64,000 bases of DNA from positions 1,536,001 to 1,600,000 of the forward strand of contig CBDEFM010000002.1 in the NCBI GenBank assembly GCA_965237415.1, read 5' to 3'. Shown piece by piece: positions 4,392 through 25,897 of this stretch. Under the pieces are notes generated by a model that worked only from the letters and a program-made list of their open reading frames with translations, did no database searches and had not been told where the DNA came from. The stretch comes from Alphaproteobacteria bacterium. GTDB lineage: Bacteria; Pseudomonadota; Alphaproteobacteria; UBA828. Position numbers and translations under genes: made by a program. Within the stretch, counting starts at the first letter, position 1. Each line of letters starts with the position of its first letter.

Positions 4392-5421
4392 GGCTCAATT
4401 CGCAAACCGTAGGCACCGGCGGTAGAATGGTTCCCGATTCGCGTGGGAGGTCAGGCAGATGGATCACGAGCGGTTTCGGGACTGGTTCTCGCATGTTGAT
4501 GAGTTGACGGCGGCGCAGCGCAAGGAGGTCGCGACGGTGCTGTCGGACCCGCCGGAGGGCGCGGCCTCGCTGGCGGCGATCGAGTTGGGCGTGGATGACG
4601 AGCGGCGCTGTCCACATTGCGGCAGCGCCGGGGCGGTGTCGCGGGGCAAGGCGCGCGGTCTGCGCCGCTATCGGTGCAAGACCTGCGGTAAGACATTCGG
4701 CGCGCTCACGGGCACGGCGCTGTCGGGGCTGCACCACAAGGAGCGCTGGCTGGCCTTCGGCGCCTCGCTTGGCGAAGGCGAGACGATCCGAGAGGCAGCC
4801 GAGCGCTGCGGGATTGCGCCGAGCACGGCGTTTCGCTGGCGCCACCGCTTCCTGGCGGCGGTGCGCCAGGCGCCGGACCGGCTTGCCGGGATCGTCGAGG
4901 CGGACGAGACCTTCGTTCTCGAGAGCCGGAAGGGGGAGCGGAAGCTGGACCGCAAGCCGCGCCGGCGCGGCGGCAAGGCCCGCAAACGCGGTCTCTCGCG
5001 CGAGCAGGTGCCGGTTCTGGTCGCCGCCGACCGTGCCGGCGCGACCCTCAGCCAAACCCTGCCCGCTCTCAACGCAAAGAGCGTGAAGGAGGCGCTGGAG
5101 CCGGTCGTCGCCCGCGATGCCTTGCTCGTCTCCGACGCCAACCGCTGCTATCCGCCCGTCGCAGCGGCGCTCGACATCCCGCACGAGAGCATCAACGGCG
5201 CCGCCGGCGAGCGGGTTCGCGGCGCCCTGCACATCCAGACGGTCAACAGCCGCCACAGCCAGATCAAGGGCTTCCTGCGGGGCTTCCGCGGCATCGCCAC
5301 CGAGTACCTCGACAGCTATCTCAGGTGGTTCCATCTCATCGAACTCGGCGACCAGCCATCGCCCAGAGCGTGTCTCAAGGCGGCAATGGCCAGACCATGC
5401 CTACGCTTCGCTAATTGAGCC
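4392..5421 (+). mobile_element. IS1595-family insertion sequence, complete
   Basis: 24-bp IRs (GGCTCAATTCGCAAACCGTAGGCA, 21/24 match) and 8-bp target duplication AATTAATA at 4384-4391 and 5422-5429. Confidence 0.93.
4459..5418 (+). CDS. IS1595-family transposase
   Basis: Zn ribbon CPHCG...RYRCKTC, HTH, VEADETF, LVSDA, HIQTVNS..H, YLDSYL. Confidence 0.92.
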   Translation: MDHERFRDWFSHVDELTAAQRKEVATVLSDPPEGAASLAAIELGVDDERRCPHCGSAGAVSRGKARGLRRYRCKTCGKTFGALTGTALSGLHHKERWLAFGASLGEGETIREAAERCGIAPSTAFRWRHRFLAAVRQAPDRLAGIVEADETFVLESRKGERKLDRKPRRRGGKARKRGLSREQVPVLVAADRAGATLSQTLPALNAKSVKEALEPVVARDALLVSDANRCYPPVAAALDIPHESINGAAGERVRGALHIQTVNSRHSQIKGFLRGFRGIATEYLDSYLRWFHLIELGDQPSPRACLKAAMARPCLRFAN

Positions 5422-6085: not shown

Positions 6086-6547
6086 TCAGCTCTTGAGAGC
6101 GACCACCGCTTCGATCTCGACCGGTATCTGGAACGGCAACGAGTTCATGCCGATCGCCGAGCGCGCGCACCGGCCCGGCTCCCCAAAGATATCGACCATC
6201 AGAGTCGAGAATCCGTCGATGACTTTCGGATGGTGCTCGAAGTCTGGCGCCGCGTTCACCATGCCGAGAACCTTGACAAAACGCTCCACCCGGTCGAGGT
6301 CGCCGATCACCGCCCTGAGGCTCGACAGAAGGTTCAGCCCGACCAGGCGGGCTGCCTCGACCGCCTCCTCGATGCTCACCTCGGTCGGGACCTTGCCGGT
6401 CAGATGGCCGCCGTCCGCGCGGCGCGGCCCATGCCCCGCGATGAACACGAGATTGCCGGTGACGACCGCACCGACGTAGGCGCCCAGGGGCGGAGGCGGC
6501 GCGGGCAATGTGATGGCAAGTTCCGTCAACCGTGCTTCGATGGTCAT
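6086..6547 (-). CDS. RidA/YjgF/UK114 family protein
   Basis: GAYVGAVVTGNLVFIAGHGP, ARSAIGMNSLP, VEIEAV; RBS AGGAGG. Confidence 0.88.
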   Translation of the reverse strand: MTIEARLTELAITLPAPPPPLGAYVGAVVTGNLVFIAGHGPRRADGGHLTGKVPTEVSIEEAVEAARLVGLNLLSSLRAVIGDLDRVERFVKVLGMVNAAPDFEHHPKVIDGFSTLMVDIFGEPGRCARSAIGMNSLPFQIPVEIEAVVALKS

Positions 6548-6706
6548 GTTGCCTCCTTTTTGTGACCGGCCGATCCCGGTCCGCCCTTATCCGACATTCC
6601 CCGAATACACGCTGGTTCCGACCGTCAGAACAGGCAACTTGAAGCAACAGCTTGAGAAAGTCCTGGTGAGGGCCGGGCGGACCCTCGGCGACGGGGCGGT
6701 GAAAGG

Positions 6707-8413
6707 CTAGTCCGGGTCTGCGGGCGGATTGGACAAGCGATCCAGAATGTCGGCGAGGCGGCTGGGATCGGCGCTTGGCATGCCGATCTCCTTGAGCAGC
6801 GCGTCAATGATCGGGGCCTGAGCCCGGTATCGTAGCGCGCTATCGGTCAGCTGCTCGGCGTAGTTGCCTGGGCCGCTGCCTTCGCCCCGGCTCCCGGTCG
6901 AGCCGGCACCGAGGCCATCGACGTGCACGATCTTGATCCCTTCGATCTTTTCGAGGGGCTTGACGGTCTCGCCGATAATCTCCTGCAGCCGCTCGATGAT
7001 CGCCATCTTGACCTTGAGCTCGATCAGTTCGGGCGTGAGCGCGGTATCGGCTTCGTGCATGGCGCGTTGGGCCTTGGCCTCTACCGCGCTGCGCACGTCC
7101 GCGGCATCGGCGCGCTGCTTCTCGGCGTCTGCCTCGGCCAGGGCAAGAAGGCGTACGCGGTTTGCCTCGCTCTCGGTCTGGATGTGGTTGGTCTCGGCCA
7201 ACTCCGCGGCCGCTTGGCGCCGGGCCTCGGCGGAGACCACGACGCCGATCGCGGTGCGTTCCGCCTCCTGTCGCGCCGCAACCAGCTCGATCTCCTTCTG
7301 CCGCTCGGCCCGTTCCACCTCGCGCACCGTGGCGACGGTCTCGCTCGCCCGAACCGCCTCTGAGCGGGCCGTCTCGGCCTCGGCCTGGGCGTGCGATTGA
7401 TCCTTCGATCGCTCCGCCACCGAGATATCTCGTTCGAACCGGGCCAGTTCGATCGTGGCGTCGCGGGCGATCTCGTGCTCACGCACCTTCTGCTCCGAAT
7501 CGAGACGCGCCTCGTTGACGATTCGCTCGGAGGTGATCTGGGTCAATTCGATCTGCTCGCGCGCATTGACCCGAGACTCTTCAATATGCCGGTCCCGCTC
7601 CGCCTCCTCCGCCGCGATCTCCGACTTCTGCTGCGCGCGCCGAATCGCGATCTCCTTCTGCTGCTGAAGGCGAGCATGCTCTTCCTGCTTGGTGATCTCG
7701 AGCTTGAGGCGCTCCGCTTGGAGGTTCTTCTCCTGGATCGCGACCTCGGCGTCCTGCTCGATCTCGTTGCGCGCCCGGCGCCGCGTCTCGATCTCCGCAG
7801 TCAGCTTGGTCAGGCCCTCCGCGTCGAACGCATTGTTGGGGTTGAAGTACTCGCGGCTCGCCTGATCGAGGCCCGTGAGCGAGATCGATTCGAGCTCCAG
7901 GCCGTTGTGCGCGATCTCCTCCGTCAACGTGGCCCGAACCGTCCGGACGAAGTCGATGCGCTGCTCGTGCAACTGCTGCATGTCCCGCTCGGCCGCGACC
8001 GAGCGCAGCGCGTCGACGAACTTCCCTTCCAGCAGCGGCCGCAGCTGCTCCGCATCGAGGGTCTTCGAGCCGAGGGTCTGCGCGGCAGCGCCGATGGCCT
8101 CTGCATTGGGACGGACTCGGACGAAGAACTCCGCCGTAACGTTAACCCGCATGCGATCACGGGTGATCAGCGCGTGCTCGTCCCCGCGCGCGAGGTCGAG
8201 CAGCAGGGTCTTCATGTTGACAGGGGTGGTGTTGTGTAGAACCGGCAGAACGAACGCGCCGCTGTTCATGACGATCTTCTCGCCGCCGAGCCCGGTACGC
8301 ACGAACGACATCTCCTTCGATGCGCGATCGTAGAGCCACCAGAACAAGAGCCACGCGATCCCGATGACGGCAAGGATCACCACGACTATCAGGACGATAC
8401 CGCCTGCACCCAT
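6707..8413 (-). CDS. Flotillin/SPFH family membrane protein (YqiK-like)
   Basis: N-terminal TM helix, FVRTGLGGEK, LITRDRMRV, NPNNAFDAEGLTKL, long Ala/Glu coiled coil, KPLEKIEGIKIV. Confidence 0.9.
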   Translation of the reverse strand: MGAGGIVLIVVVILAVIGIAWLLFWWLYDRASKEMSFVRTGLGGEKIVMNSGAFVLPVLHNTTPVNMKTLLLDLARGDEHALITRDRMRVNVTAEFFVRVRPNAEAIGAAAQTLGSKTLDAEQLRPLLEGKFVDALRSVAAERDMQQLHEQRIDFVRTVRATLTEEIAHNGLELESISLTGLDQASREYFNPNNAFDAEGLTKLTAEIETRRRARNEIEQDAEVAIQEKNLQAERLKLEITKQEEHARLQQQKEIAIRRAQQKSEIAAEEAERDRHIEESRVNAREQIELTQITSERIVNEARLDSEQKVREHEIARDATIELARFERDISVAERSKDQSHAQAEAETARSEAVRASETVATVREVERAERQKEIELVAARQEAERTAIGVVVSAEARRQAAAELAETNHIQTESEANRVRLLALAEADAEKQRADAADVRSAVEAKAQRAMHEADTALTPELIELKVKMAIIERLQEIIGETVKPLEKIEGIKIVHVDGLGAGSTGSRGEGSGPGNYAEQLTDSALRYRAQAPIIDALLKEIGMPSADPSRLADILDRLSNPPADPD

Positions 8414-8581
8414 TGCTACGATCTCCCCTGTCGCGACCTTGGCCGCGTGGCTGGCGGTCGCCGAGCGTTGTCGAAACTATTACGGAACTTGTCTCGGCAT
8501 GCCAGCGTCAATACCCTGCCAGACCGAATGACGGCGCGCAGGCTCCAAGGATAGCCGCCGGACCAAACCGCGAAGGCAGGC

Positions 8582-10055
8582 ATGGCGACACCGGCGCGAG
8601 AGGTCGCTCCCGGGCTTAGAGAGCTGAGCAATTATGTCGGTGGCCGGTTCGAGGCGACCGGCTCGTTGTTCGATGACGTGACGCCGGTGAGCGGCGCAGT
8701 CGTCGCGCGAGTACATGAGGCCGACGCGGCGCTTATTGACGCCGCGGTCCACGCCGCGCGCGGCGCCTTCGAGAGTGCATGGCGGCCGCTGCCGATCGCC
8801 GAGCGTTGCGCCCTGCTTCACAAGGTCGCGGACGGCGTCGAGGAGCGTTTCGACGATTTCCTCGAGGCGGAAGTGGCTGATACCGGCAAGCCGGCGTCGA
8901 TCGCGCGTGAGATCGATATTCCGCGCGGCGCGGCCAACTTCCGGATGTTCGCCGATTTGATCAAGACAGCGGGCACAGATTGCTTCGAGATGGACACGCC
9001 CGATGGCCGCGGAGCCCTCAACTACTCGGTGCGAGAGCCCCATGGCGTGGTGGGCGTCATCGCGCCCTGGAACCTGCCGCTCCTCCTGCTCACCTGGAAG
9101 GTCGCGCCGGCGCTCGCGAGCGGGAACACGGTGATCGCCAAGCCGTCCGAGGAGACCCCGGCGACGGCGACCCTGCTCGCCGAGGTGATGGACGCGGCAG
9201 GCGTACCCCCCGGCGTGTTCAATGTTGTCCACGGCTTCGGGCCGAATTCGGCGGGCGAATGGCTCTCTCGTCACCCGGGGATCGATGCGCTCACCTTCAC
9301 GGGCGAGAGCAAGACTGGCGCTGCCATCATGAATGCCGCCGCCGATACCGTGAAGCCGCTCTCGTTCGAACTCGGCGGCAAGAATGCGGCCGTCATCTTC
9401 GCCGACGCGGATTTCGAGGCGGCGATCGAGGGCACAACACGGTCAGTGTTCGCAAATTGCGGGCAGGTTTGCCTCAACTCCGAGCGAGTCTATGTCGAGC
9501 GACCCATCTTCGAGCGCTTCGTCGCGGCCCTGAAGGAGCGGGCCGAAGCGTTGGTCCCGGCCGATCCCTGGGCCGACGACTGCACGTTGGGGCCACTCAT
9601 CTCGGCCGAGCATCGCACCAAGGTTCTCGGCTACTACGATCTCGCCAGAGACGAGGGCGCAGAGGTGGTGACCGGCGGGGGCGTGCCGGACTTCGGCGAC
9701 GCGCGCGACGGCGGCTCCTACGTGCAACCGACGATCTGGACCGGCCTCACCGACACCGCGCGCTCGGTGCGCGAGGAGATCTTCGGACCGGTCTGTCATA
9801 TTGCGCCGTTCGACAGCGAGGACGAGGCGATCGCCCGCGCCAACGACAGCGACTACGGCCTCGCAACCGCAATCTGGACCCGCGATCTGTCACGCGCGCA
9901 TCGCGTGGCGCGGCGGATCGCGGTTGGGATTTGCTGGGTCAATTGCTGGTTTCTGCGTGATCTCCGAACCCCGTTCGGCGGCGTCAAGCTCTCCGGAATC
10001 GGCCGGGAGGGTGGGCTCCACTCGCTCAACTTCTATGCCGAGCAGAAGAACATCT

Positions 10056-10069
<14 letters not shown>
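8582..10069 (+). CDS. 2-hydroxy/2-aminomuconic semialdehyde dehydrogenase (DmpC/AmnC-like)
   Basis: DIPRGAANF, PWNLPLLL, KPSEETP, FELGGKN, GQVCL, EEIFGPV, WFLRDLRTPFGG. Confidence 0.9.
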
Positions 10070-11464
<1,395 letters not shown>

Positions 11465-11495
11465 CCATGGTTCCTGCGGGATCGGCCGCACGAAC

Positions 11496-12308
11496 ATGAC
11501 CCTCGCCGCCGCGTTCCTGGTTCCGGGTTCTCCTCTGCCCTATTTGCGCAAGGACAATCCGCCCTGGTCCGGTCTCGCCGCCGGCTACGAGAAGGCGGCG
11601 CGCGCGCTCTCCGCTGCCCGCCCCGACGTCGTGCTGCTCTACTCCACCCAATGGGTGGCGGTTCTGGACCAGCTCTGGCAGGAGCGGCCGCGATTGCAGG
11701 GACTGCATGTCGATGAGAATTGGTACGAGTTCGGCGAGTTGCCGTTCGACCTGGGCATCGACACCGCGCTCGCGCAGGCCTGTGTCGAGAATGCCAATGC
11801 GCTCGGGCTACACTCGAGGGGAATCGACTACGACGCCTTTCCGGTCGATACCGGAACCATCGTCGCCAGCAACAGCCTCGATCCCGAGGGTGCTCGACGT
11901 TTCGTGCTGGCCGCCAACAATCTCTACCACGACTTCGAGACCACCCGGCGCATCGCGACCATCGCGGGCGAGGCCGCGAGCGCGCAGGGCAAGCGCTTCG
12001 CCGTGGTCGGTGTCGGCGGACTTTCGGGCACGATATTCCGCGAAGAGATCGACATCGCCGACGATCGGATCGCGAGCGACGAGGACGATCGCTGGAACCG
12101 GCGTATGCTGAGCCTGCTGGAGAAGGGCGAGACGCAGCAGGTCGACCGGGAGTGCGCGGACTATGTGCAGGCGGCCAAGGTCGACATGGGCTTCAAGCAC
12201 CTCGCATGGATTCAGGGTGCGACGGGAGGACGCTATTACGGCGCGCGCATTCACGCCTACGGTCCGACTTATGGAGCCGGCGCGGCCGTCGTCGAGTTCA
12301 AGGTTTAG
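11496..12308 (+). CDS. amnA: 2-aminophenol 1,6-dioxygenase alpha subunit
   Basis: AFLVPGSPLP, YSTQWVAVLDQLWQ, VDENWYEFG, DMGFKH, YGPTYGAGAAVVEF; follows the beta subunit. Confidence 0.88.
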   Translation: MTLAAAFLVPGSPLPYLRKDNPPWSGLAAGYEKAARALSAARPDVVLLYSTQWVAVLDQLWQERPRLQGLHVDENWYEFGELPFDLGIDTALAQACVENANALGLHSRGIDYDAFPVDTGTIVASNSLDPEGARRFVLAANNLYHDFETTRRIATIAGEAASAQGKRFAVVGVGGLSGTIFREEIDIADDRIASDEDDRWNRRMLSLLEKGETQQVDRECADYVQAAKVDMGFKHLAWIQGATGGRYYGARIHAYGPTYGAGAAVVEFKV

Positions 12309-12336: not shown

Positions 12337-13596
12337 ATGAGAAAGGTACTCTTGCTCGCGGCGTTCGCGATGGTCGCCGCGACTTCGTTCTGGCAAGCCG
12401 CGCCGGTGCAGGCGGCTGACGATTGCGTGGTCACGGTGGGCCGGGTCGTACCGCTCACGGGGCCCTTACTGGACATGGGCCGTGAAACGCCCTGGCTGGA
12501 CCACAACAAGGTCGATCCGATCAACGAGGCCGGAGGTCTGCAGGTCGGGGATCAGCAATGCAAGATCGAATTCAAGATCTTCGATTCGAAAGGCACGATG
12601 GCCGGTTCCGGCGAAGCTGCAACGCGGGCGATCTTGGGCGAGAAAGTCGACGTGGTCTTCGCGCAAGGCACGCCTGACACGACCAACGCTCCCTCGGACC
12701 TCTGCGAGCGCTACGAGGTGCCCTGCATCACCTCGAACACACCGGTCGAGGCATGGCTATTCGGTCCCGACGGCAAGCCGAAGACCTACACTCACACGTA
12801 CCATTTCTTCTTCGGCGTGCCGGACCTCGTCGCCAATCACGTTGGCATGATCAAATCGCTGCCGGGCGGCTTCAACGGGAAGATCGGCTACCTCTACCCG
12901 AACGATCCCGACGGCGTCGTCTTCGCAAGCCTGTTCGACCCGACCTTCAAGGGCGAGGGCTGGGAGCCCATCGATCCGGGCCGCTTCGAGCAAGGTATCC
13001 CCGATTTCTCCGCGATCATCAACAAGTTCAAGCGCGGTAGGGTCGAGGTCGTGACCGGCGTGCTGGCCCCGCCGGACCTGCAGAACTACCTGCAGCAAGC
13101 GGCGCAGGCAGGCTTCAAGCCGCGGATGTACATCATCGACAAGGCGACCGGCTATCCGGAGGCGATGCGGGCGCTCGGCAAATTCGGGATCGACATCCTG
13201 AGCGTGAATTTCTGGTCGCCGGCCTATCCGGGGTCGTCGAAATACGGCGGCTACACGGGTCAGGGTCTGGTCGATGCTTACGAGAGCGCCAACCCGGACA
13301 AGTACTATTCGCCGCCGCTGGCTTATACGGACGCCTCCTATGACGTCCTGTTCGACGCCCTGCAACGGGCCGGCACGACCGATCGTGTGGCGCTCCTCAA
13401 GGCGTTGGCCGAGACCGACTTGGACACCGTCGTCGGTCGCGTCAAATTCACCGAGCAACACTATTCGGTTCAGCCGCTCGGCGGGGCGCAGTGGCGCGTC
13501 GACGGCGAGACCAACCGCTGGGTCAAGGACAACGTCTACAACGCCGTCTATCCGGATGTGAAGAAAACCGCGGAGATGCGTCTCTACCAACAATAA
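12337..13596 (+). CDS. Branched-chain-type (LivJ-like) ABC substrate-binding protein
   Basis: signal peptide, VVPLTGPL, INEAGGL, YPNDPDG. Confidence 0.88.
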   Translation: MRKVLLLAAFAMVAATSFWQAAPVQAADDCVVTVGRVVPLTGPLLDMGRETPWLDHNKVDPINEAGGLQVGDQQCKIEFKIFDSKGTMAGSGEAATRAILGEKVDVVFAQGTPDTTNAPSDLCERYEVPCITSNTPVEAWLFGPDGKPKTYTHTYHFFFGVPDLVANHVGMIKSLPGGFNGKIGYLYPNDPDGVVFASLFDPTFKGEGWEPIDPGRFEQGIPDFSAIINKFKRGRVEVVTGVLAPPDLQNYLQQAAQAGFKPRMYIIDKATGYPEAMRALGKFGIDILSVNFWSPAYPGSSKYGGYTGQGLVDAYESANPDKYYSPPLAYTDASYDVLFDALQRAGTTDRVALLKALAETDLDTVVGRVKFTEQHYSVQPLGGAQWRVDGETNRWVKDNVYNAVYPDVKKTAEMRLYQQ

Positions 13597-13601
13597 CGCA
13601 G

Positions 13602-13637
13602 TGGGACGGTGGCGGTCAGCGCGCCGCCGCCGTCCCA
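13602..13637 (+). promoter_or_regulatory. Intercistronic stem-loop after the SBP gene
   Basis: TGGGACGGTGGCGG pairs with CCGCCGCCGTCCCA; typical position for differential mRNA stabilisation. Confidence 0.55.
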
Positions 13638-13679
13638 TCGCCGACGTTCTCCTCGCGGGTCTCAGACCGGTCCAGCACG

Positions 13680-14396
13680 ATGACCGAAATTCTGGTTGTA
13701 TCTGAGCTCTGCAAGTCATTCGGCGCGCTCCGGGTGGCCGACCGGATTTCCTTTGTCGTTCGGCAGGGAGAAATCCTCGGCATCATCGGGCCCAACGGGG
13801 CCGGCAAGACGACGCTGTTCGGCCTCCTCGCCGGCAATATCAGCGCCGATTCGGGGAACATCGAATTCGACGGTGCCGACGTAACCCGGTCGCCGGCGCA
13901 CGATCGCGCTCGTGGGGGCCTCGCCCGGACCTATCAGATTCCGCGCCCGTTCACGCACATGACGGTGTTCGACAATTTGCTGGTGGCCGCCCGTTTCGGT
14001 GGCAACATGGATGAAGCCGAAGCGGCGACCTGGGTCGAGCGCGTGATCGCGGCGCTGGGTCTGCGGGCCGAGCGCAATACCCTCGCGGGCCGATTGCCGT
14101 TGCTGATGCGCAAACGCCACGAGCTCGCGCGGGCTCTTGCCATGCGGCCGAAGCTCATTCTGGTAGACGAAGTGGCAGCTGGCCTGACCGATGCCGAAGT
14201 GGTGCAGTTCATCACGCTCATTCGCGGCATCCGTAATTCGGGCATCACGGTGGTGTGGATCGAGCACGTGATGAAGACCATGCTCACCGCGACCGATCGC
14301 CTCATCGTCTTGGATGCGGGGCGGCTCCTGGTCTCCGGTCCGCCACAGGAGGTGATCAACACATCGGAAGTTCGCCGTGTCTATCTTGGCGCCTGA
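13680..14396 (+). CDS. ABC ATP-binding protein (LivG-like)
   Basis: GPNGAGKTT, ARTYQIPRPF, LVDEVAAGL, WIEH. Confidence 0.92.
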   Translation: MTEILVVSELCKSFGALRVADRISFVVRQGEILGIIGPNGAGKTTLFGLLAGNISADSGNIEFDGADVTRSPAHDRARGGLARTYQIPRPFTHMTVFDNLLVAARFGGNMDEAEAATWVERVIAALGLRAERNTLAGRLPLLMRKRHELARALAMRPKLILVDEVAAGLTDAEVVQFITLIRGIRNSGITVVWIEHVMKTMLTATDRLIVLDAGRLLVSGPPQEVINTSEVRRVYLGA

Positions 14397-15144
14397 GGAT
14401 GACGGGCCGCTTCTGAGGGTCGCGGGACTTTCCGCCTACTATGGCGAGCTTCGTGCGCTTACCAACATCGGCTTCGAGATCGAGCGCGGGGAGATTCTCT
14501 CGATCATCGGTGCCAACGGCGCTGGCAAGACAACCCTCTTGAAGTCTTTGGTGGGCTTGATGGGTCGCGGGCGCCTCGCCCGTATCGAAGGGCGGATCGA
14601 GTTCGAAGGCCGCGCCATCGAGCACCTGGCGACCGAGGACATCGTCAATGCCGGCATGGCGCTGGTACCCGAGGGCCGCCGCCTGTTCTCCCGGCTTTCG
14701 GTGCAGGAAAACCTCATGGCAGGCGCCTATCTGCCCCGCTGCCGAAGCACGCTGAAAGAGCGCCTCGACGAAATCTACGCGTTGTTTCCCGCGCTCGCCG
14801 AGCGGCGACGGCAGATCGTCTCGCAAATGTCCGGCGGTGAGCAGCAGATGGTGGCTATCGGGCGGGCGCTGATGTCGTCGCCGACGCTGATCCTGTTCGA
14901 CGAGTTATCGCTCGGCCTCGCCCCGTTCGTGGTCGACGACATCTACCGCAAGGTCAATCAAATTCACGAGCTGGGCGTGACCGCAATCGTAATCGAGCAG
15001 GACATGAGGCGCGCCCTGCGCGTCGCATCGCACGTGTTCGTCATGCTCGGGGGCCACGTCGTGCTGGAAGGCAAGCCCGAGTATCTCACCGAGGAGCAAG
15101 TCAGCGCCGCCTATTTCGGCGCCGGGATCGAAGGCCTCGGCTGA
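14377..15144 (+). CDS. ABC ATP-binding protein (LivF-like)
   Basis: GANGAGKTT, VPEGRRLF, MSGGEQQM, DELSLGLAP. Confidence 0.92.
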   Translation: MSILAPEDDGPLLRVAGLSAYYGELRALTNIGFEIERGEILSIIGANGAGKTTLLKSLVGLMGRGRLARIEGRIEFEGRAIEHLATEDIVNAGMALVPEGRRLFSRLSVQENLMAGAYLPRCRSTLKERLDEIYALFPALAERRRQIVSQMSGGEQQMVAIGRALMSSPTLILFDELSLGLAPFVVDDIYRKVNQIHELGVTAIVIEQDMRRALRVASHVFVMLGGHVVLEGKPEYLTEEQVSAAYFGAGIEGLG

Positions 15145-16061
15145 TGAGCGAGGATCTATACTGGACGCTCATCGACATCGCCAACGGCCTCCTCTCGGGC
15201 GCGATGCTCGGCGGCTACTACGCCATCATCAGCCTTGGTCTCGCACTGGTGTTCGGTGTCATGCGCCTGGTCAACCTGGCGCACGGCGATTGGCTTATCG
15301 TCGCCGCCTATATCGCGTCTGTGATCGTCCAGTTTCTCGGTTTCCCGCCCTTCGTGTCGTTGATCGTTGTCGTCCCCGCCATGTTCGCGATCGGCTACGC
15401 GCTGCAGCGCCAGGTGTTGAATCGGGTCTCGGTCCAGGCGATGGAAGAGAAGGGCATGTCGTCCAGTTTCGGGCTCATGTCCCCGATCCTGGTGACCTTC
15501 GGCCTGTCGATCGTGATCGCCCACGCGTTGCTCGGGATCTTCGCCTCGGACGCCACGGCCATCGAGAACGCGCTGAGCTATTCGGCGATCCGCCTGACGC
15601 AGGATCTCAGTATCTCGACCCTCCGCCTGATCTTCTTCGGAATTGCCAGCGTTATCCTGGTGAGCGTTCACCTGTTCCTGCATCGCACCCACGCGGGGCG
15701 GGCGATCCGCGCGGCATCGGACGATCCAGAGGTCGCCTCGCTCATGGGGATACGCACGGAGCGCATCTACGCGCTGGCGAGTGCGATCTCTCTCGCGGTC
15801 GCGGGCGTTGCCGGCGTCGCGGTCGGCATGTCGCGCACCTTTCAACCATTCGACGGGCCGCAGTTCCTGCTGATCGCGTTCGGCGTGGTGATCGTCGGCG
15901 GCCTCGGATCGATCGCCGGCAGCCTGGTCGGCGGCGTCCTGCTCGGCGTCACGCAGGTCCTGGCCGGGACCTATTTCGGCCCCTCCGCGCAACTCGTCGC
16001 CGGCTACATGCTGATCCTCTTCGTGCTCGCGGTACGCCCCCAAGGGCTCTTCTCGCGATGA
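15144..16061 (+). CDS. ABC permease (LivH-like)
   Basis: GLALVFGVMRLVNLAHG, GRAIRAAS, GGLGSIAG, RPQGLF; TGATG coupling. Confidence 0.92.
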   Translation: MSEDLYWTLIDIANGLLSGAMLGGYYAIISLGLALVFGVMRLVNLAHGDWLIVAAYIASVIVQFLGFPPFVSLIVVVPAMFAIGYALQRQVLNRVSVQAMEEKGMSSSFGLMSPILVTFGLSIVIAHALLGIFASDATAIENALSYSAIRLTQDLSISTLRLIFFGIASVILVSVHLFLHRTHAGRAIRAASDDPEVASLMGIRTERIYALASAISLAVAGVAGVAVGMSRTFQPFDGPQFLLIAFGVVIVGGLGSIAGSLVGGVLLGVTQVLAGTYFGPSAQLVAGYMLILFVLAVRPQGLFSR

Positions 16062-19000
16062 TCGCGCGTGGGCTCAACCTCTTGCTGACCGGCTGGTCGG
16101 GCCGGGGCTTGCTCGCCGTGCTGCTCGCCTTCGCCATCGCTATCCCGTGGCTGGTCGGCGATCGGAGCTACGTGACCTATTTGGTGTTCACGTTCTTCGT
16201 GTTTGCCGTGTTCGGCCACGCCTGGAACTTGCTGGCCGGCTACTGCGGTCTGCTCTCTTTCGGCAACCAGGTCTACGTCGGCATTGGCGGCTTCGCTCTG
16301 GCGATCATGTTCTACTACGGCGGCATCAACGTCTGGTTGGCGCTGCCAATCTCCGGAATTGTCACCGCGGCTTTCGCATTTCTGCTCGCGACACCGGTGC
16401 GGGAGAGCCTGGTCGGCATCGGGGTCTGGAAGCCCGTGGCAGTCGCCGGCGTGCTGTGGGCCGGCTACGAGGTCGCGCTTGGCTACTTTCCCGAGGCCGA
16501 CATCTTCGGCGAGGTCTATATCCGCCGCGTCATAATCCTCTTGCTGATCTTCCTCGGCGCCCTCCCCCTACTACGCCTGCAAGGCGCCTATTTCGCGGTC
16601 GCAAGCTGGTTGATCGCGGCCGCGGTGGGCTCGATCTTCAACGAGTGGAAAGTGGTCGGCGCCGGTGGTGGCATGCAGATCAAGACCGATGCCACACAGA
16701 TCGAGATGTATTACGCCGGCCTCGGGTTGCTTGTGTTCGCGACCGTGGTGATCGCGTGGCTTCTCAAGAGCCGGTACGGGCTCGCACTGACCGCGGTGCG
16801 CGACGATGAGGAAGCGGCGCGGACGGTCGGCATCGATATCCGCAAGGTGAAGCTGATCGTCTTCGTGGTCGCGGGCGGGCTCAGCGGCCTCGCGGCGGGT
16901 CTGTTCTATATCGACGCGGTGATCATCACGCCGCCGTCCGCGTTCACGATCTTCTGGTCGGCCTATTTCGTCTTCATCGTCGTCGCGGGCGGCATGGGCA
17001 CGCTGGCCGGCCCGATTATCGGTGCCGCAATCTTCGTCGTCGTCGACCGCGTGCTTTCCGGCTTCATCGAGTATCCGCTATTGGTCCTCGGAATCGCGGC
17101 CGTGGTCATCATCTTCGTGATGCCGCGTGGCGTCATGGGCATCATCAATGCGCTGCGGCATCTGGACGATTCGGCCACCGGCCGCAACGAATTGCTCGAA
17201 GCGCTCGGCATCGGCGACCGACTTCAACGCGCCCTGTTGTTCGCCAGACGGCGCGACACAACGCCGGGGGTGGTGGCGGCCTTCCTGGTTCCGGGCAGCC
17301 CCCTGCCGCTCCTCGCCCGCGACAATCCACCGTGGACCGAGATCGCGGACGGTTTCGAGGACGCGGCCGCTGCGCTGCGTGAGACGGAGCCCGACGTCAT
17401 CCTCATCTACTCGACTCAATGGCTCGCCGTTCTCGACCAGCCGTGGCAAACCCGGCCGCGCGTCCGCGGCCTCCATGTCGATGAAAACTGGTACGAGTAT
17501 GGCGAGATCGCCTACGACATCGAGATCGACACCGAGCTCGCAGAGGCGTGCATCAGCGCCTGCCGCACTCTCGGGATCAAGGCCCGCGGCGTCAACTATG
17601 ACGGCTTCCCGATCGATACGGGCAGCATCGTCGCCAACCGCTTCCTCAACGCGGACGGTGCCTGCGCGGTCGTCATGGCGGCGAACAACCTCTATCACGA
17701 TTGGGAGCAGACCCTGAAGCTCGGGGAGATGGCGGCGAACCAAGCGGTGCGCCTGGGCCGCCGGGTCGCCGTGATCGGCGTCGGCGGCCTGTCGGGCTCC
17801 ACGTTTCGACGCGAGATCGATCCTGCCGATGATCACATCGCAAGCGCGAGCGAAGATGCGTGGAACCGGCGGATGCTCGACACGATGGTCAGGGGCGATG
17901 CTTCGGCCATAAAGGCGCTGATCGCGGACTATGCGCGCGAAGCCCGCGCGGATATGGGTTTCAAGCATTTCGCCTGGGTGCTCGGCGCCATAGGAGGCCG
18001 CTTCCATAGCGCGACGGTTCACGCTTACGGCCCGACCTATGGAAGCGGCGCGGCGGTGGTGGAGTTTCACACCAGCGACGAGGCGGCGGTTCTCGCGGCG
18101 ACGCGGCGAAGGCGCCGGCAGCGGCGGGCTCTGCGGGAGCAGGCCGCGCAAAGCAGGTCACGGGACGACGACGGCGACGGCAGGCGAGCTCTCCTCCGTT
18201 GGCTCCCGGCGGGTTCGCGTCACTTGGCACCGACCGATCGCCCGTCGGCGACGCCGCCTGCCGCGCCTCCGTCGCTTCCTACCCGCCGGCAATCTGCCAC
18301 GCGGACCGGTCCCGCTCTCTATCGCTCGTTCCGCACTCAGGCCGAGATCGACACGCAATATGATGTCGAGAGCAGCGTGCCCGATTTCGGCCGACACGTG
18401 GATTTCTTCCTCTCCAGCAGCGCGCGCGTTCGCAAGAAGCTCGGGCCTCGGCTCGATGTGCCCTTCGGCCCGACCACCGCCGAGACCCTCGACATCTATC
18501 CGGCGGCCCGGTCCGATGCGCCGATTCACATGTTCATTCACGGCGGCTACTGGCACTCGTTGAGCAGTAAGGAGTTCAGCTTCGTCGCCGAGAGTCTGGT
18601 CGCGGCGGGCGTGACGGTGGTGATCAACAACTACGCGCTCTGCCCGGAGGTCACGATCACGGAGATCGTGCGGCAGAACCGTGCCGCGGTCGCATGGCTC
18701 TACCGCAATGCCGCAACCTTCGGCGGCAACCGGAGCCGCTTCTATGTATCGGGGCATTCGGCCGGCGGCCATCTGACGGCCATGTTGCTCGCGACCAATT
18801 GGGAGCGTGATTTCGGACTACCGCCCGACCTCGTCAAGGGCGGCACCGCGATCAGCGGCCTGTTCGACCTCGATCCCTTCGTTCATTCCTGGCTGCAGCC
18901 GAAGCTCCGCTTGACCGCCGAGGAGATCGATCGAATGAGCCCGATCCGACACGTCCCGGACCGCGCGTCTCCGCTGACCGTCACGCTCGGTGGCGATGAA

Positions 19001-19174
19001 TCCGCGGAGTTTCACCGCCAGTCCGAGACCTTCCTCGCCGCCTGGACCGAGAAGGGCCTCGACGGCCACTATCTCGACCTGCCCGGCCGCAACCATTTCA
19101 CGGTACTCGAGGACTACATGGACTCTGGTAGCCCGCTCTGCCGCTCGATCCTGCGGCAAATGGGGATTACTTGA
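16058..19174 (+). CDS. Triple fusion: LivM-like permease, aminophenol dioxygenase alpha-like domain, arylformamidase-like alpha/beta hydrolase (about 1038 aa)
   Basis: single frame: WNLLAGYCGLLSFG...AVRDDEEAA...MPRG (to about 17160); VVAAFLVPGSPLP...YGSGAAVVEF (about 17270-18070); LDIYP, HGGYW, GHSAGG, NHF (about 18320-19174). Confidence 0.8.
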   Translation: MIARGLNLLLTGWSGRGLLAVLLAFAIAIPWLVGDRSYVTYLVFTFFVFAVFGHAWNLLAGYCGLLSFGNQVYVGIGGFALAIMFYYGGINVWLALPISGIVTAAFAFLLATPVRESLVGIGVWKPVAVAGVLWAGYEVALGYFPEADIFGEVYIRRVIILLLIFLGALPLLRLQGAYFAVASWLIAAAVGSIFNEWKVVGAGGGMQIKTDATQIEMYYAGLGLLVFATVVIAWLLKSRYGLALTAVRDDEEAARTVGIDIRKVKLIVFVVAGGLSGLAAGLFYIDAVIITPPSAFTIFWSAYFVFIVVAGGMGTLAGPIIGAAIFVVVDRVLSGFIEYPLLVLGIAAVVIIFVMPRGVMGIINALRHLDDSATGRNELLEALGIGDRLQRALLFARRRDTTPGVVAAFLVPGSPLPLLARDNPPWTEIADGFEDAAAALRETEPDVILIYSTQWLAVLDQPWQTRPRVRGLHVDENWYEYGEIAYDIEIDTELAEACISACRTLGIKARGVNYDGFPIDTGSIVANRFLNADGACAVVMAANNLYHDWEQTLKLGEMAANQAVRLGRRVAVIGVGGLSGSTFRREIDPADDHIASASEDAWNRRMLDTMVRGDASAIKALIADYAREARADMGFKHFAWVLGAIGGRFHSATVHAYGPTYGSGAAVVEFHTSDEAAVLAATRRRRRQRRALREQAAQSRSRDDDGDGRRALLRWLPAGSRHLAPTDRPSATPPAAPPSLPTRRQSATRTGPALYRSFRTQAEIDTQYDVESSVPDFGRHVDFFLSSSARVRKKLGPRLDVPFGPTTAETLDIYPAARSDAPIHMFIHGGYWHSLSSKEFSFVAESLVAAGVTVVINNYALCPEVTITEIVRQNRAAVAWLYRNAATFGGNRSRFYVSGHSAGGHLTAMLLATNWERDFGLPPDLVKGGTAISGLFDLDPFVHSWLQPKLRLTAEEIDRMSPIRHVPDRASPLTVTLGGDESAEFHRQSETFLAAWTEKGLDGHYLDLPGRNHFTVLEDYMDSGSPLCRSILRQMGIT

Positions 19175-20118: not shown

Positions 20119-21510
20119 GAGCTATAGCCGAATCTTGGTGACGGTTTGGGTCAGGCGGCGGCTTGAGGTTGTTGCCTGACGGCTTCGATTCCGTCGATGA
20201 ACTTTACGCCGACGATCAGCTTGGGCAACTGGTTGTGTCCGTCGAGGCGGCGCCAACTGTCCTGTGCCGCCTGGGCGAGTTTTAAGACCATGGCGAGCGC
20301 CGTCTTGTTGGAGAGGCATCCCTTGGATCGCACGGTACGGTGTCGCACGGTGGCGACTGTGCTTTCGATGGGGTTGGTGGTGCGCAGATGCTTCCAATGC
20401 TCGGCGGGAAAGTCGTAGAACGCCAGCATCGTCGCGCGATCCTTGACCAGGCAGGCGGCCGCCTTGTCGTATTTGACGGCGTCGGTCTCGATGAAGGCGT
20501 CGAAGGCGCTGTCTGCGTCGTTCCTGGTCTCGGCCATCCAGATTTCCTGGAGAGCACGCTTTGCCTTCGAGTGCTGGCTCTTGGGCAGCTTGTTGAGCAC
20601 GTTGGCGGTCTTGTGCATCCAACAGCGCTGGCTGCGGGTCCGGGGCCACACCTCCTCGATCGCCTTCCAGAAGCCGAGCGCGCCGTCGGCGATGGCGAGT
20701 TCGGGCGCGACCGCAAGCCCGCGCCGTTTGAGGTCAAGTAGCAGCTCGCGCCACGATTGGGCGCTCTCGCGCACCCCGTCGATGAGGCCTACGAGTTCCT
20801 TCTTACCCTCCGGCGTCGCGCCGATGATGACCAGCAGGCATTGCGCATCGTCCTCGAGCCGGGCCTGCACATGGATGCCGTCGGCCCAGAAGTAAACATA
20901 GTGCCTGGCCGACAGATCCCGCTTCAGCCAGTGCGCGTGCTGGTCCGCCCAAACCTCGGTGAGCCGCGCCACGGTCGAGGCCGACAGGCCGCCGGCGTCC
21001 GGCCCGAGCAAGGCCGCCAGCGCCACGGCGAAGTCGCCCGTGGAGATGCCCTTGAGGTAGAGCACGGGGATCGGGACTTCGAGGCTCGTCGAGCGCCGCG
21101 CATAAGGCGGCAGGAGCGCGGAGCTGAACCGGATGCGCTCGGCGCCCTGGCCCGTGCGGTCGCGAACGCGTGGCGCGCGAACCGCAACCGGGCCGATGCC
21201 GGTCATGATCTCGCGTTCGGGCAGGTGGCCGTGGCGCACCAGCCGTCGGCGGCCTTCTTCGGTGCGCGCCTCGGAGTGGCCATCAAGGAACCCGGCAACC
21301 TCCGCCTCGACCGCCCGCGCCAGCAGGGACCGGGCGCCGCTGCGCAGCACCTCGGTCAACGGATCGGAAAACGTCGATGGCTGGGAAAGCTTCAAAACGG
21401 TATTGTCACTCACGGCGTATCACTCCTTCGTTGGAGAAGTGGAGGCTCGATTACCCCCACGATACGCCGCCTTAACCCTTCACCCCGTCACCAACTTCTG
21501 GCCATAGCTC
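20119..21510 (-). mobile_element. IS256-family insertion sequence (copy A)
   Basis: 26-bp IRs GAGCTATAGCCGAATCTTGGTGACGG / GAGCTATGGCCAGAAGTTGGTGACGG; no target duplication visible. Confidence 0.88.
20151..21413 (-). CDS. IS256-family (mutator) transposase
   Basis: YFWADGI, RESAQSW, ADGALGFW, QRCWMHK, RTTNPIES. Confidence 0.93.
   Translation of the reverse strand: MSDNTVLKLSQPSTFSDPLTEVLRSGARSLLARAVEAEVAGFLDGHSEARTEEGRRRLVRHGHLPEREIMTGIGPVAVRAPRVRDRTGQGAERIRFSSALLPPYARRSTSLEVPIPVLYLKGISTGDFAVALAALLGPDAGGLSASTVARLTEVWADQHAHWLKRDLSARHYVYFWADGIHVQARLEDDAQCLLVIIGATPEGKKELVGLIDGVRESAQSWRELLLDLKRRGLAVAPELAIADGALGFWKAIEEVWPRTRSQRCWMHKTANVLNKLPKSQHSKAKRALQEIWMAETRNDADSAFDAFIETDAVKYDKAAACLVKDRATMLAFYDFPAEHWKHLRTTNPIESTVATVRHRTVRSKGCLSNKTALAMVLKLAQAAQDSWRRLDGHNQLPKLIVGVKFIDGIEAVRQQPQAAA

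Positions 21511-24766: not shown

Positions 24767-25897
<1,131 letters not shown>

Follow-up and report, generated by a model that had tools for sequence, protein, structure and literature searches.

Does the long reading frame at 16058..19174 (+ strand) of the stretch analysed here encode a single protein in which an importer is joined to enzymes that would act on its cargo, and what could such a protein do? The stretch (the window) comprises 64,000 nucleotides, positions 1,536,001 to 1,600,000 of contig CBDEFM010000002.1 (assembly GCA_965237415.1), from an Alphaproteobacteria bacterium of the lineage UBA828. A first-pass annotation, made from the letters of the window, had read the frame as a fusion of a LivM-type permease, a second copy of an aminophenol dioxygenase alpha subunit (hereafter alpha') and an arylformamidase-like hydrolase, and had proposed that alpha' docks the catalytic beta subunit on the importer. 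We find that 16058-19174 is one real permease::AmnA'::hydrolase gene of 1038 amino acids (aa), as judged from its frame, Pfam matches, relatives and independent contigs, and not an artefact of assembly or of high-GC sequence. It encodes an inner-membrane protein and comes last in an import module made up of genes for a binding protein and two ATPases, livH and livM::alpha', which lies inside an amn gene set. The new element is an importer permease covalently joined to a non-catalytic enzyme subunit (here also to a hydrolase), with a dedicated flotillin; all of the parts and the pathway come from known families.

Domain architecture of the fused gene

The open reading frame (ORF) around the gene is free of stops from 15290 through the TGA at 19172-19174. 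The gene starts with the ATG at 16058, which overlaps the stop codon of livH as ATGA. Pfam recognized three domains in the product: BPD_transp_2 (PF02653) at residues 165-355 (E 1e-27, 97.4 bits), LigB (PF02900) at residues 422-657 (E 1.3e-15, 57.6 bits against a cutoff of 26.3), and BD-FAE/Abhydrolase_3 at residues 811-938 (E 1e-17 / 2e-13; Abhydrolase_3, PF07859, 51 bits against a cutoff of 25). The LivM-type permease domain of an ATP-binding cassette (ABC) importer occupies residues 1-355 (16058..17122, + strand as for all parts of the gene) and was delimited by the Pfam match and the helices of an AlphaFold2 model. It is followed by linker 1 (residues 356-404, 17123..17269), which is about 48 aa long and arginine-rich, with three short predicted helices and low model confidence at 385-402. 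The AmnA' domain, which has the LigB fold and is of the non-catalytic alpha type by alignment and by its match to chain 3vsg_A, covers residues 405-671 (17270..18070). Linker 2 (residues 672-752, 18071..18313), disordered over much of its approximately 80 aa, consists of a basic predicted helix at 674-704 and then a disordered Pro/Ala/Ser/Arg stretch. The last domain (residues 753-1038, 18314..19171) is an alpha/beta serine hydrolase of the hormone-sensitive lipase (HSL) family according to Pfam, matches in the Protein Data Bank (PDB) and motifs. The three-domain single frame of the first-pass annotation is thus confirmed by Pfam, PDB chains and relatives. An ORF in an alternative frame (18039-18563) gave no family in a Pfam search.

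The arginine-rich predicted helix that directly follows alpha' (residues 674-704, 18077-18169) reads TRRRRRQRRALREQ in the window and LARRGRARGIP..KRRL in relatives of 58-60% identity. It is kept within subclades, unlike the rest of linker 2, and may be an element that contacts the membrane or the ATPase.

The fusion is conserved in relatives and independent contigs

The DNA of linker 2 has 76% G+C and lacks stops in all three frames, and therefore an open frame in one genome alone is not decisive; codon-position G+C across this stretch was uninformative. The comparative data, namely in-frame relatives, selection on the linker and gap-free contigs, establish that the fusion is real. A length-restricted search gave 329 relatives of 570-1817 aa, and domain content was assessed for the 120 listed. 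All three domain types were present in 51 of these (58-99% identity, 988-1043 aa), and 69 had the permease and LigB families only, mostly at 665-702 aa. The search for the architecture in other genomes, which the first-pass annotation had put forward as a check, thus found it repeatedly.

We then compared 80 loci from species-representative genomes. The permease-to-alpha junction was in frame and open in 63 of them and broken in two (L071, L073); the alpha domain was absent behind the permease in 11, and the contig ended too early in four. Among the loci that have both permease and alpha, linker 1 was therefore stop-free and in frame in 63/65. Wherever the hydrolase follows (16 loci), it was in frame and open in all 16. 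Linker 2 is 56-87 aa long among relatives (14 measured of 17 tried, the motif not being found in three), with largely diverged sequences. In one of these loci (L015) linker 2 has 62% G+C, and another frame holds four stops but the reading frame none.

An internal translation start for the hydrolase was considered and rejected. The 83 codons of linker 2 in the window contain no ATG and a single TTG (codon 723), which bears out the earlier remark that the hydrolase has no ATG of its own. Among 15 linkers examined (of 17 tried), five have no ATG, GTG or TTG codon at all, no start is conserved, and a Shine-Dalgarno-like motif lies upstream of only one candidate start. The ratio of nonsynonymous to synonymous substitution rates (dN/dS), taken for hydrolase and linker from seven chosen pairs, was 0.10-0.15 for the hydrolase domain and 0.2-0.6 for linker 2 (0.20-0.43 in pairs with unsaturated dS).

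The annotation had also called for a read pile-up over both junctions. Contigs from 4 of 24 listed sequencing runs were aligned to the locus. Those from three runs of other studies span both junctions with 0 gaps: run X2 covers 17085-17328 and 17917-18402, run X4 covers 16985-17328 and 17917-18176, and a contig of run X11 covers 16000-17706. The compared contigs contain a single indel, namely a +1/-1 pair (17381/17384) that one minor contig shows. A frameshift in the assembly was rejected as the cause of the fusion because of the in-frame relatives and these gap-free contigs. Contigs from an RNA-library run (X18) touch parts of all three domains and the junction regions 17138-17447 and 18010-18234, which cannot show transcription, transcript ends or a single transcript.

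The AmnA' domain and its predicted binding of AmnB

Against PDB chains (phmmer), alpha' matched 3vsg_A (E 7.4e-100), the alpha subunit of 2-amino-5-chlorophenol/2-aminophenol 1,6-dioxygenase (AmnA/CnbCa); chain 8ihg_B was matched over residues 5-271 (E 1.9e-89). Alpha' is about 60% identical to the solved CnbCa. The free amnA gene of the window (11496..12308, +) encodes a stand-alone alpha subunit that matches the same chain (3vsg_A, E 3.4e-102), and alpha' is indeed a second alpha paralogue beside this free copy, as had been claimed. Unlike AmnA, which is a stand-alone soluble protein of about 270 aa, alpha' is part of a membrane protein of 1038 aa.

In an alignment of 49 sequences, both free and fused alpha have VPGSP and STQW where beta has PHPPH and SPHW. 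Glycine and glutamine thereby replace histidines of the beta motifs APHPPH and SPHW, histidines that we take to be the iron ligands. Since both motif histidines are replaced, alpha' and free alpha are non-catalytic, and on this point the first-pass annotation holds. NCBIfam had no equivalog for alpha', AmnB or the hydrolase.

To the prediction of a complex we gave AmnB (with a 56-row alignment) and residues 401-681 of the fused protein. The predicted complex scores 0.90 and the best control 0.00; among solved complexes 116 of 157 reach this mark, and among mismatched pairs 2 of 215. Contacts agree between the runs to at least 96%, and the partner has a predicted local distance difference test (pLDDT) value of at least 92. 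In this model 31 residues of alpha' form the AmnB interface. In 55 typical fused domains these positions are more conserved than the others (0.78 versus 0.65, Mann-Whitney p 0.002), as they are in 59 free alpha subunits (0.79 versus 0.70, p 0.017). The typical fused domains share the consensus of free alpha at 24/31 interface positions versus 162/241 elsewhere. The dN/dS of alpha' is 0.08-0.20 in typical pairs (0.16 for the AmnA' domain of the fused gene) and 0.13-0.23 in the divergent clade described below; over the same nine pairs, typical and divergent, free alpha gave 0.03-0.15 and beta 0.01-0.09, with many dS values saturated. From the model and these sequence comparisons, the alpha' of the window looks fit to bind AmnB.

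Ten fused domains form a divergent clade (L026, L029, L030, L031, L035, L037, L038, L039, L060 and L063, at about 11100-12000 in those with full flanks) from Paracoccaceae, Devosia and unclassified Pseudomonadota. Here the interface is not more conserved than the other positions (0.44 versus 0.55); free alpha and beta of these loci stay conserved. The divergent domains are 28-36% identical, a distance at which the alignment is less sure. By sequence comparison, one subclade seems to have given up AmnB binding while keeping the fused domain.

Topology of the permease

The permease domain carries the coupling-loop motif AVRDDEEAA at residues 246-254. Judged by where it lies in members of the family, the conserved loop GLALTAVRDDEEAARTVGIDIRKVK (about residues 241-265) is probably the cytoplasmic coupling region. 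The domain scored below the NCBIfam cutoffs for LivM (NF008450, 102.8 versus 366) and UrtC (TIGR03408, 101.3 versus 296.2), and thus by those models it does not belong to a branched-chain amino acid or urea system. Searched against PDB chains, the permease part gave 0 matches.

For AlphaFold2 we used an alignment of 67 sequences, that is, the window protein and 66 of the 120 listed relatives, frameshifted and partial ones being left out. The full-length model has three confident domains (mean pLDDT 81.3), with low confidence at residues 385-402 and 705-750 (pLDDT below 50 at 705-750). Helices at 261-287, 299-311, 318-333 and 340-354 come after the coupling loop. The topology is our reading of these helices together with a count of charged residues, not the output of a predictor; a crude hydropathy scan produced overlapping, unusable segments and was not used. 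Under this reading Arg and Lys are concentrated in the loops assigned to the cytoplasm. Because four helices follow the cytoplasmic coupling loop and Arg/Lys are so distributed, the C-terminal 680 residues should be cytoplasmic in this model, which fits the free alpha, the beta and the stand-alone hydrolases, none of which has a signal peptide.

The docking proposed by the first-pass annotation is therefore upheld in part. The in silico complex score, the conserved predicted interface and the cytoplasmic topology reading speak for it; the pass of the complex may be a memory of 3VSG.

The hydrolase moved into the fusion

The hydrolase domain has the motifs HGGYW (828-832), GHSAG (899-903), GGDES (978-982) and NHFTV (1012-1016), the first two being those named in the earlier claim. 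HGGYW and GHSAG are presumably typical of arylformamidases. The HGG oxyanion, GxSxG nucleophile, acidic and His motifs are conserved in ten aligned triple forms. Among PDB chains the domain matched 9n8r_A (E 5.3e-44), 2pbl_A (1.2e-20) and 4e11_A (1.8e-15), the last being Drosophila kynurenine formamidase and only a distant match. The score lay below the cutoff of NCBIfam HaHSL_fam (159.4 versus 320 bits), and no tryptophan-pathway genes were seen in the cassette.

A separate homologue of the hydrolase (46-56% identity) lies between the gene of the substrate-binding protein and livG in 36 of the 40 two-domain loci that show both flanking genes, and in none of 15 triple-fusion loci. Therefore, in the window clade only, the gene of the cassette's own cytoplasmic hydrolase left this slot and was fused to the 3' end of the permease-alpha' gene, gaining the linker of about 80 aa. 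The stand-alone hydrolases begin 2-5 residues ahead of a LYRxFxTQAE motif and have no signal peptide (14 inspected).

Two further stand-alone paralogues of the hydrolase are encoded in the window's own genome (G000:C2:988236-989099, -, and 748140-748958, +; 45% and 43% identity). In a Lichenihabitans locus (L059, 1296-2878), a hydrolase gene lies directly 3' of the permease gene.

The fused gene belongs to an amn cassette with a flotillin

Upstream of the fused gene, the window encodes the catalytic beta subunit AmnB (10550..11464, +; 3vsg_B, E 9.3e-166), which has a GTG start behind a GGGAGAGG motif and a mean column identity of 83% over 56 sequences. Between the free amnA and the fused gene lie a periplasmic substrate-binding protein with a signal peptide (12337..13596, +; Peripla_BP_6, N-terminus MRKVLLLAAF...), two ABC ATPases (13491..15144, +; ABC_tran; a livG-like ORF at 13491-14396, the true start of which is uncertain, and a livF-like one at 14377-15144) and a livH-like second permease (15144..16061, +; BPD_transp_2). 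An amnC-type semialdehyde dehydrogenase (8582..10069, +) scored 855.5 bits with TIGR03216 (cutoff 693). On the other strand lie a flotillin with SPFH (Band_7) and Flot domains by Pfam and a hydrophobic N-terminal anchor (6707..8476, -), and a Rid/YjgF-family protein of the same type as amnJ/amnD (6086..6586, -; Pfam YjgF_endoribonc, Ribonuc_L-PSP).

A tblastn survey of the 80 loci showed that the order amnB-amnA-binding protein-(hydrolase)-livG-livF-livH-livM::alpha'-aldehyde dehydrogenase recurs. On the alphaproteobacterial side it was found in metagenome-assembled genomes (MAGs) of Rhodospirillales type, Mesorhizobium, Phaeobacter, Devosia and Paracoccaceae. Many Burkholderiales (Methylibium, Xenophilus, Variovorax, Rubrivivax, Rhizobacter, Lautropia, Pusillimonas) have it as well, as does one Ectothiorhodospiraceae MAG on the gammaproteobacterial side. 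In Methylibium (L033) the import module is inserted between amnA and amnC of an amn set that reads MarR, Rid, amnB, amnA ... aldehyde dehydrogenase, Rid, two FAA-hydrolase-type genes, acetaldehyde dehydrogenase and aldolase.

Of the 50 loci with at least 3 kb of DNA upstream of amnB, 47 have a divergent flotillin gene there, at a distance of 0.8-3.5 kb. In L009 it is downstream instead, and the fetched stretches of L007 and L017 contained no flotillin. None was found in seven loci that have only a distant plain LivM (33% identity, L074-L080), nor in two classical amnB-amnA-aldehyde dehydrogenase loci without a transporter that came from the phylum sample described below (L081, L082). A flotillin dedicated to one catabolic cassette is unusual, and no paper linking flotillin to amn genes was found in the searchable full-text literature, which leaves subscription-only papers and supplements outside.

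Distribution and history

The window's own genome, a 2-contig assembly, has one amnB, one free amnA and one fused alpha'. Among 400 other genomes sampled evenly from the phylum, none had a match that spans permease and alpha', and two had a free alpha. The permease-alpha' architecture is thus rare in this sample, and not thereby absent elsewhere. In a library of 1.84 billion representatives, only 308 proteins, some of them fragments or beta subunits, matched alpha' at E ≤ 0.001; of the 150 best of these, four are permease-fused (P0021, P0036, P0060, P0139). Names in the databases are automatic, such as 'alpha/beta hydrolase fold domain-containing protein' and 'ABC-type ... permease subunit/aromatic ring-opening dioxygenase'. 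The same literature search found no paper on a permease-dioxygenase fusion or on an inserted import module, in keeping with the earlier statement that the architecture had not been described.

A tree of 65 fused alpha domains, 59 free alpha and 5 beta sequences was computed by a quick maximum-likelihood search, with support from the Shimodaira-Hasegawa-like approximate likelihood ratio test (SH-aLRT). A branch with SH-aLRT 90 sets the free alpha sequences apart, and the loci group alike in the fused and the free subtree. Since the free sequences are so placed and the subtrees mirror each other, the data fit a single ancient event of duplication and fusion, after which the cassette was inherited and transferred as a whole. 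The root of the tree is unsettled, because the beta outgroup attaches within the fused group by a very long branch. By these comparisons the permease-alpha fusion is old and spread over Alpha-, Beta- and Gammaproteobacteria, and the hydrolase fusion appears in the window clade only.

A proposed function and its alternatives

We lean, by no great measure, towards cleavage of aminophenol tethered to the importer, with alpha' docking AmnB there and a leashed hydrolase unmasking a conjugate. Alpha' would bind the catalytic AmnB in the way that the free alpha subunit does, and the importer would thereby carry a ring-cleaving enzyme at its cytoplasmic face. In the known enzyme, according to the part of the mBio 2023 paper available to us (PMC10470539), the beta subunits hold two alpha/beta heterodimers together as the biological dimer. 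As the dimer forms through beta and alpha is peripheral, a tethered alpha'-beta could find its partner in a free alpha-beta; with a single LivM in each importer, such pairing would explain why every cassette retains a fused alpha beside a free one. The hydrolase, a separate protein in most lineages and on a flexible leash here, may unmask an imported ester or amide conjugate to o-aminophenol, which would be cleaved at once, the semialdehyde going to the dehydrogenase. The first-pass annotation had suggested an N-acyl-aminophenol as the imported compound, with ring cleavage at the pore, which would be one such conjugate. We infer that intermediates could be channelled in this way, leaving less free aminophenol to auto-oxidize and less semialdehyde to be lost to picolinate. 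Flotillin might gather such assemblies in the membrane. The conservation of a hydrolase and a binding protein in the cassette suggests a conjugate as the natural substrate in place of plain 2-aminophenol. A bolder version, which we put forward tentatively and think doubtful, is that Proteobacteria run the aminophenol pathway as a flotillin-organized metabolon on the importer. A decoy-like alpha' would capture the dioxygenase, each enzyme having one alpha on the tether and the other free; in the window clade the importer would also bear the leashed hydrolase, and a dedicated flotillin would cluster the units. Such a metabolon would be a membrane-based counterpart of the ARO microcompartment, and the same toxic pathway would then have been confined in two unrelated ways.

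Several observations weigh against the tethering proposal. The predicted AmnB-alpha' complex resembles the solved 3VSG, 8IHG and 7TXY, and because similar complexes have been solved its pass may reflect memory and show likeness only. The predicted interface residues overlap the core motifs of the fold, so that their conservation is not specific proof of binding. The ten divergent fused domains match free alpha at only 7/31 interface positions and are still under purifying selection (dN/dS 0.13-0.23), and such selection without the interface signature hints at another or a new role in that clade. Placement of the domains in the full-length model is uncertain (predicted template modelling score, pTM, 0.44). 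Every locus with sufficient upstream DNA retains a free amnA, and thus alpha' is not needed to build the enzyme. Related transporters without alpha' exist (L057, L059, L065); their LivM is 52-53% identical and they have no amn genes, which means that the import and hydrolase module can stand alone. No substrate clue came from the binding protein, which matched only distant Leu-/urea-binding proteins among PDB chains (E 1e-5 or weaker), or from the hydrolase, for which the ESM Atlas returned only generic 'alpha/beta hydrolase/esterase' clusters in addition to the PDB matches given above. Furthermore, the livM part is broken in a cultured Neopusillimonas genome (L073), and four long relatives (P0021, P0023, P0028, P0065) are frameshifted in linker 2. 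In these four, the hydrolase part is translated in a wrong frame that stays stop-free over about 300 aa, which reflects either a sequencing error in a very GC-rich linker or a real loss of the fused hydrolase.

These points leave room for other explanations. Alpha' might be a cytoplasmic ligand-sensing or regulatory domain whose iron-less pocket gates the importer by trans-inhibition, so that uptake never outruns cleavage and AmnB binding is not needed. The lack of beta's two motif histidines, the constant presence of a free alpha and the divergent clade, which lost the interface signature under continued selection, would all suit a sensor. However, the predicted AmnB interface is the most conserved part of the 55 typical fused domains, the window included, and matches free alpha, the complex with AmnB passes, and known trans-inhibited ABC importers carry their sensor on the ATPase, not on the permease. 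We consider a sensor unlikely. Alternatively, the fusion might merely couple expression and location, alpha' being an ordinary alpha subunit with no benefit from channelling or proximity. Genes of one operon fuse easily in high-GC genomes, and the hydrolase is a separate protein in most two-domain loci. Mere co-expression nevertheless sits poorly with a permease-alpha' junction that is in frame across classes in nearly all loci with both parts, beside a separately kept free alpha, with fused and free lineages that have co-diverged since one old duplication, and with a flotillin gene that travels with the transporter-bearing cassette; we hold this explanation, too, to be rather improbable.

The last alternative is that there is no fusion and that three adjacent genes are read as one through stop-poor, high-GC sequence or an assembly indel. 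A linker of 76% G+C without stops in any frame, an assembly of two contigs and the four frameshifted relatives would allow it. It is refuted as far as sequence can do so by the common frame of the hydrolase in 16/16 loci with linkers of 56-87 aa, by the linkers that offer no possible start codon and the near absence of Shine-Dalgarno-like motifs, by the open linker 1, by the contigs of other studies and by the L015 linker, and we regard it as very improbable. Tethering at the importer thus stays the reading that we prefer.

Comparison with known systems

The window resembles AmnAB/CnbCaCb (3VSG, 8IHG, 7TXY) in having a true amnB, a free amnA and an equally alpha-like alpha'. The published amnRJBACDFEHG operon is that of Burkholderia xenovorans LB400 (PMC3790839, available in part), and the L033 cassette is like it in being flanked by MarR, Rid, amnC and lower-pathway genes. 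Classical amn operons contain a single alpha gene and lack a transporter, which is the case in the control loci L081 and L082 and in the LB400 gene table within the available part of that source. The window differs from them in its second alpha, which is covalently joined to a permease, in the uptake/hydrolase module between amnA and amnC, and in the attached flotillin.

According to the available part of PMC10470539, 2-aminophenol is toxic to its host above 100 µM, the pathway yields toxic aldehydes and the dead-end product picolinate, Actinobacteria enclose the pathway in the ARO microcompartment, and the true substrate there is probably an upstream precursor of 2-aminophenol. In LB400, picolinate arises non-enzymatically from the semialdehyde and inhibits growth (available part of PMC3790839). 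So far as these sources describe it, the microcompartment shares with the window the same enzymes, an AmnAB-type dioxygenase and an aldehyde dehydrogenase, and the same presumed problem of toxicity and picolinate. It differs in its protein shell, in place of which we propose a membrane tether to the importer, and no shell proteins are encoded in the locus. The likeness to the microcompartment is one of analogous function, as proposed, and not of membership.

The import module has the BPD_transp_2 fold of LivHMGF/UrtBCDE importers, with a Peripla_BP_6 protein, two ATPases and two permeases. Unlike theirs, the permease of the window carries 680 extra residues, cytoplasmic in our reading, and falls below the LivM/UrtC cutoffs. 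The hydrolase shares the HGG(YW), GHSAG, GGDES and NHF motifs with HSL esterases and arylformamidases (9N8R 'Lipase 1', 2PBL, 4E11), but it is fused to a membrane protein and lies below the HaHSL_fam cutoff. Transport metabolons and vectorial catabolism are represented by the anion exchanger with carbonic anhydrase, group translocation by the phosphotransferase system (PTS) and vectorial acylation by FadL/FadD. As proposed here, the first metabolic step is coupled to a transporter in those systems and free substrate never accumulates. Their coupling is non-covalent or chemical, whereas in the window an enzyme subunit is covalently part of an ABC-importer permease.

Vectorial catabolism, or the transport metabolon, is an idea that has often been invoked but seldom demonstrated. 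If the tether works, the cassette would be a genetically hard-wired case in which an ABC importer is physically coupled to the enzymes that begin the breakdown of its cargo. The coupling of import and catabolism is directly testable here, since the joint is a covalent one and carriers are available in culture (Xenophilus sp. L33, Phaeobacter sp. 11ANDIMAR09, Mesorhizobium sp. ANAO-SY3R2 and Methylibium). The puzzling non-catalytic alpha subunit would then gain a role as a docking module, a bacterial flotillin would be tied to a defined metabolic client, and the aminophenol pathway would have a second, independent mode of confinement beside the actinobacterial microcompartment. A conjugate as substrate would bear on what the widespread amn genes do outside polluted sites.

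Variation in single loci and at the flanks of the cassette

In the Neopusillimonas locus (L073, 9900-11905; N. aromaticivorans CC-YST667, complete genome) the permease part is broken up into three overlapping frames. One ORF there still holds the final transmembrane helices together with the linker and alpha', and livF and livH are read as one ORF of 583 aa; the split permease is either a pseudogene or due to sequencing errors. Two copies of the binding-protein/hydrolase pair are present in L027 (3033-7475), and a second upstream copy of the hydrolase in L016 (879-1778, 6439-7293) and L018 (269-1117, 6728-7594). These duplications hint at more than one substrate.

The amnC and Rid genes of the window are positioned differently from those of the Burkholderiales loci. 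The cassette is flanked by transposases of the IS1595 family (4426-5418, +), the Mutator family (20151-21413, -) and the IS110 family (24767-25696, +), which suggests that it lies on a mobile or recently rearranged island.

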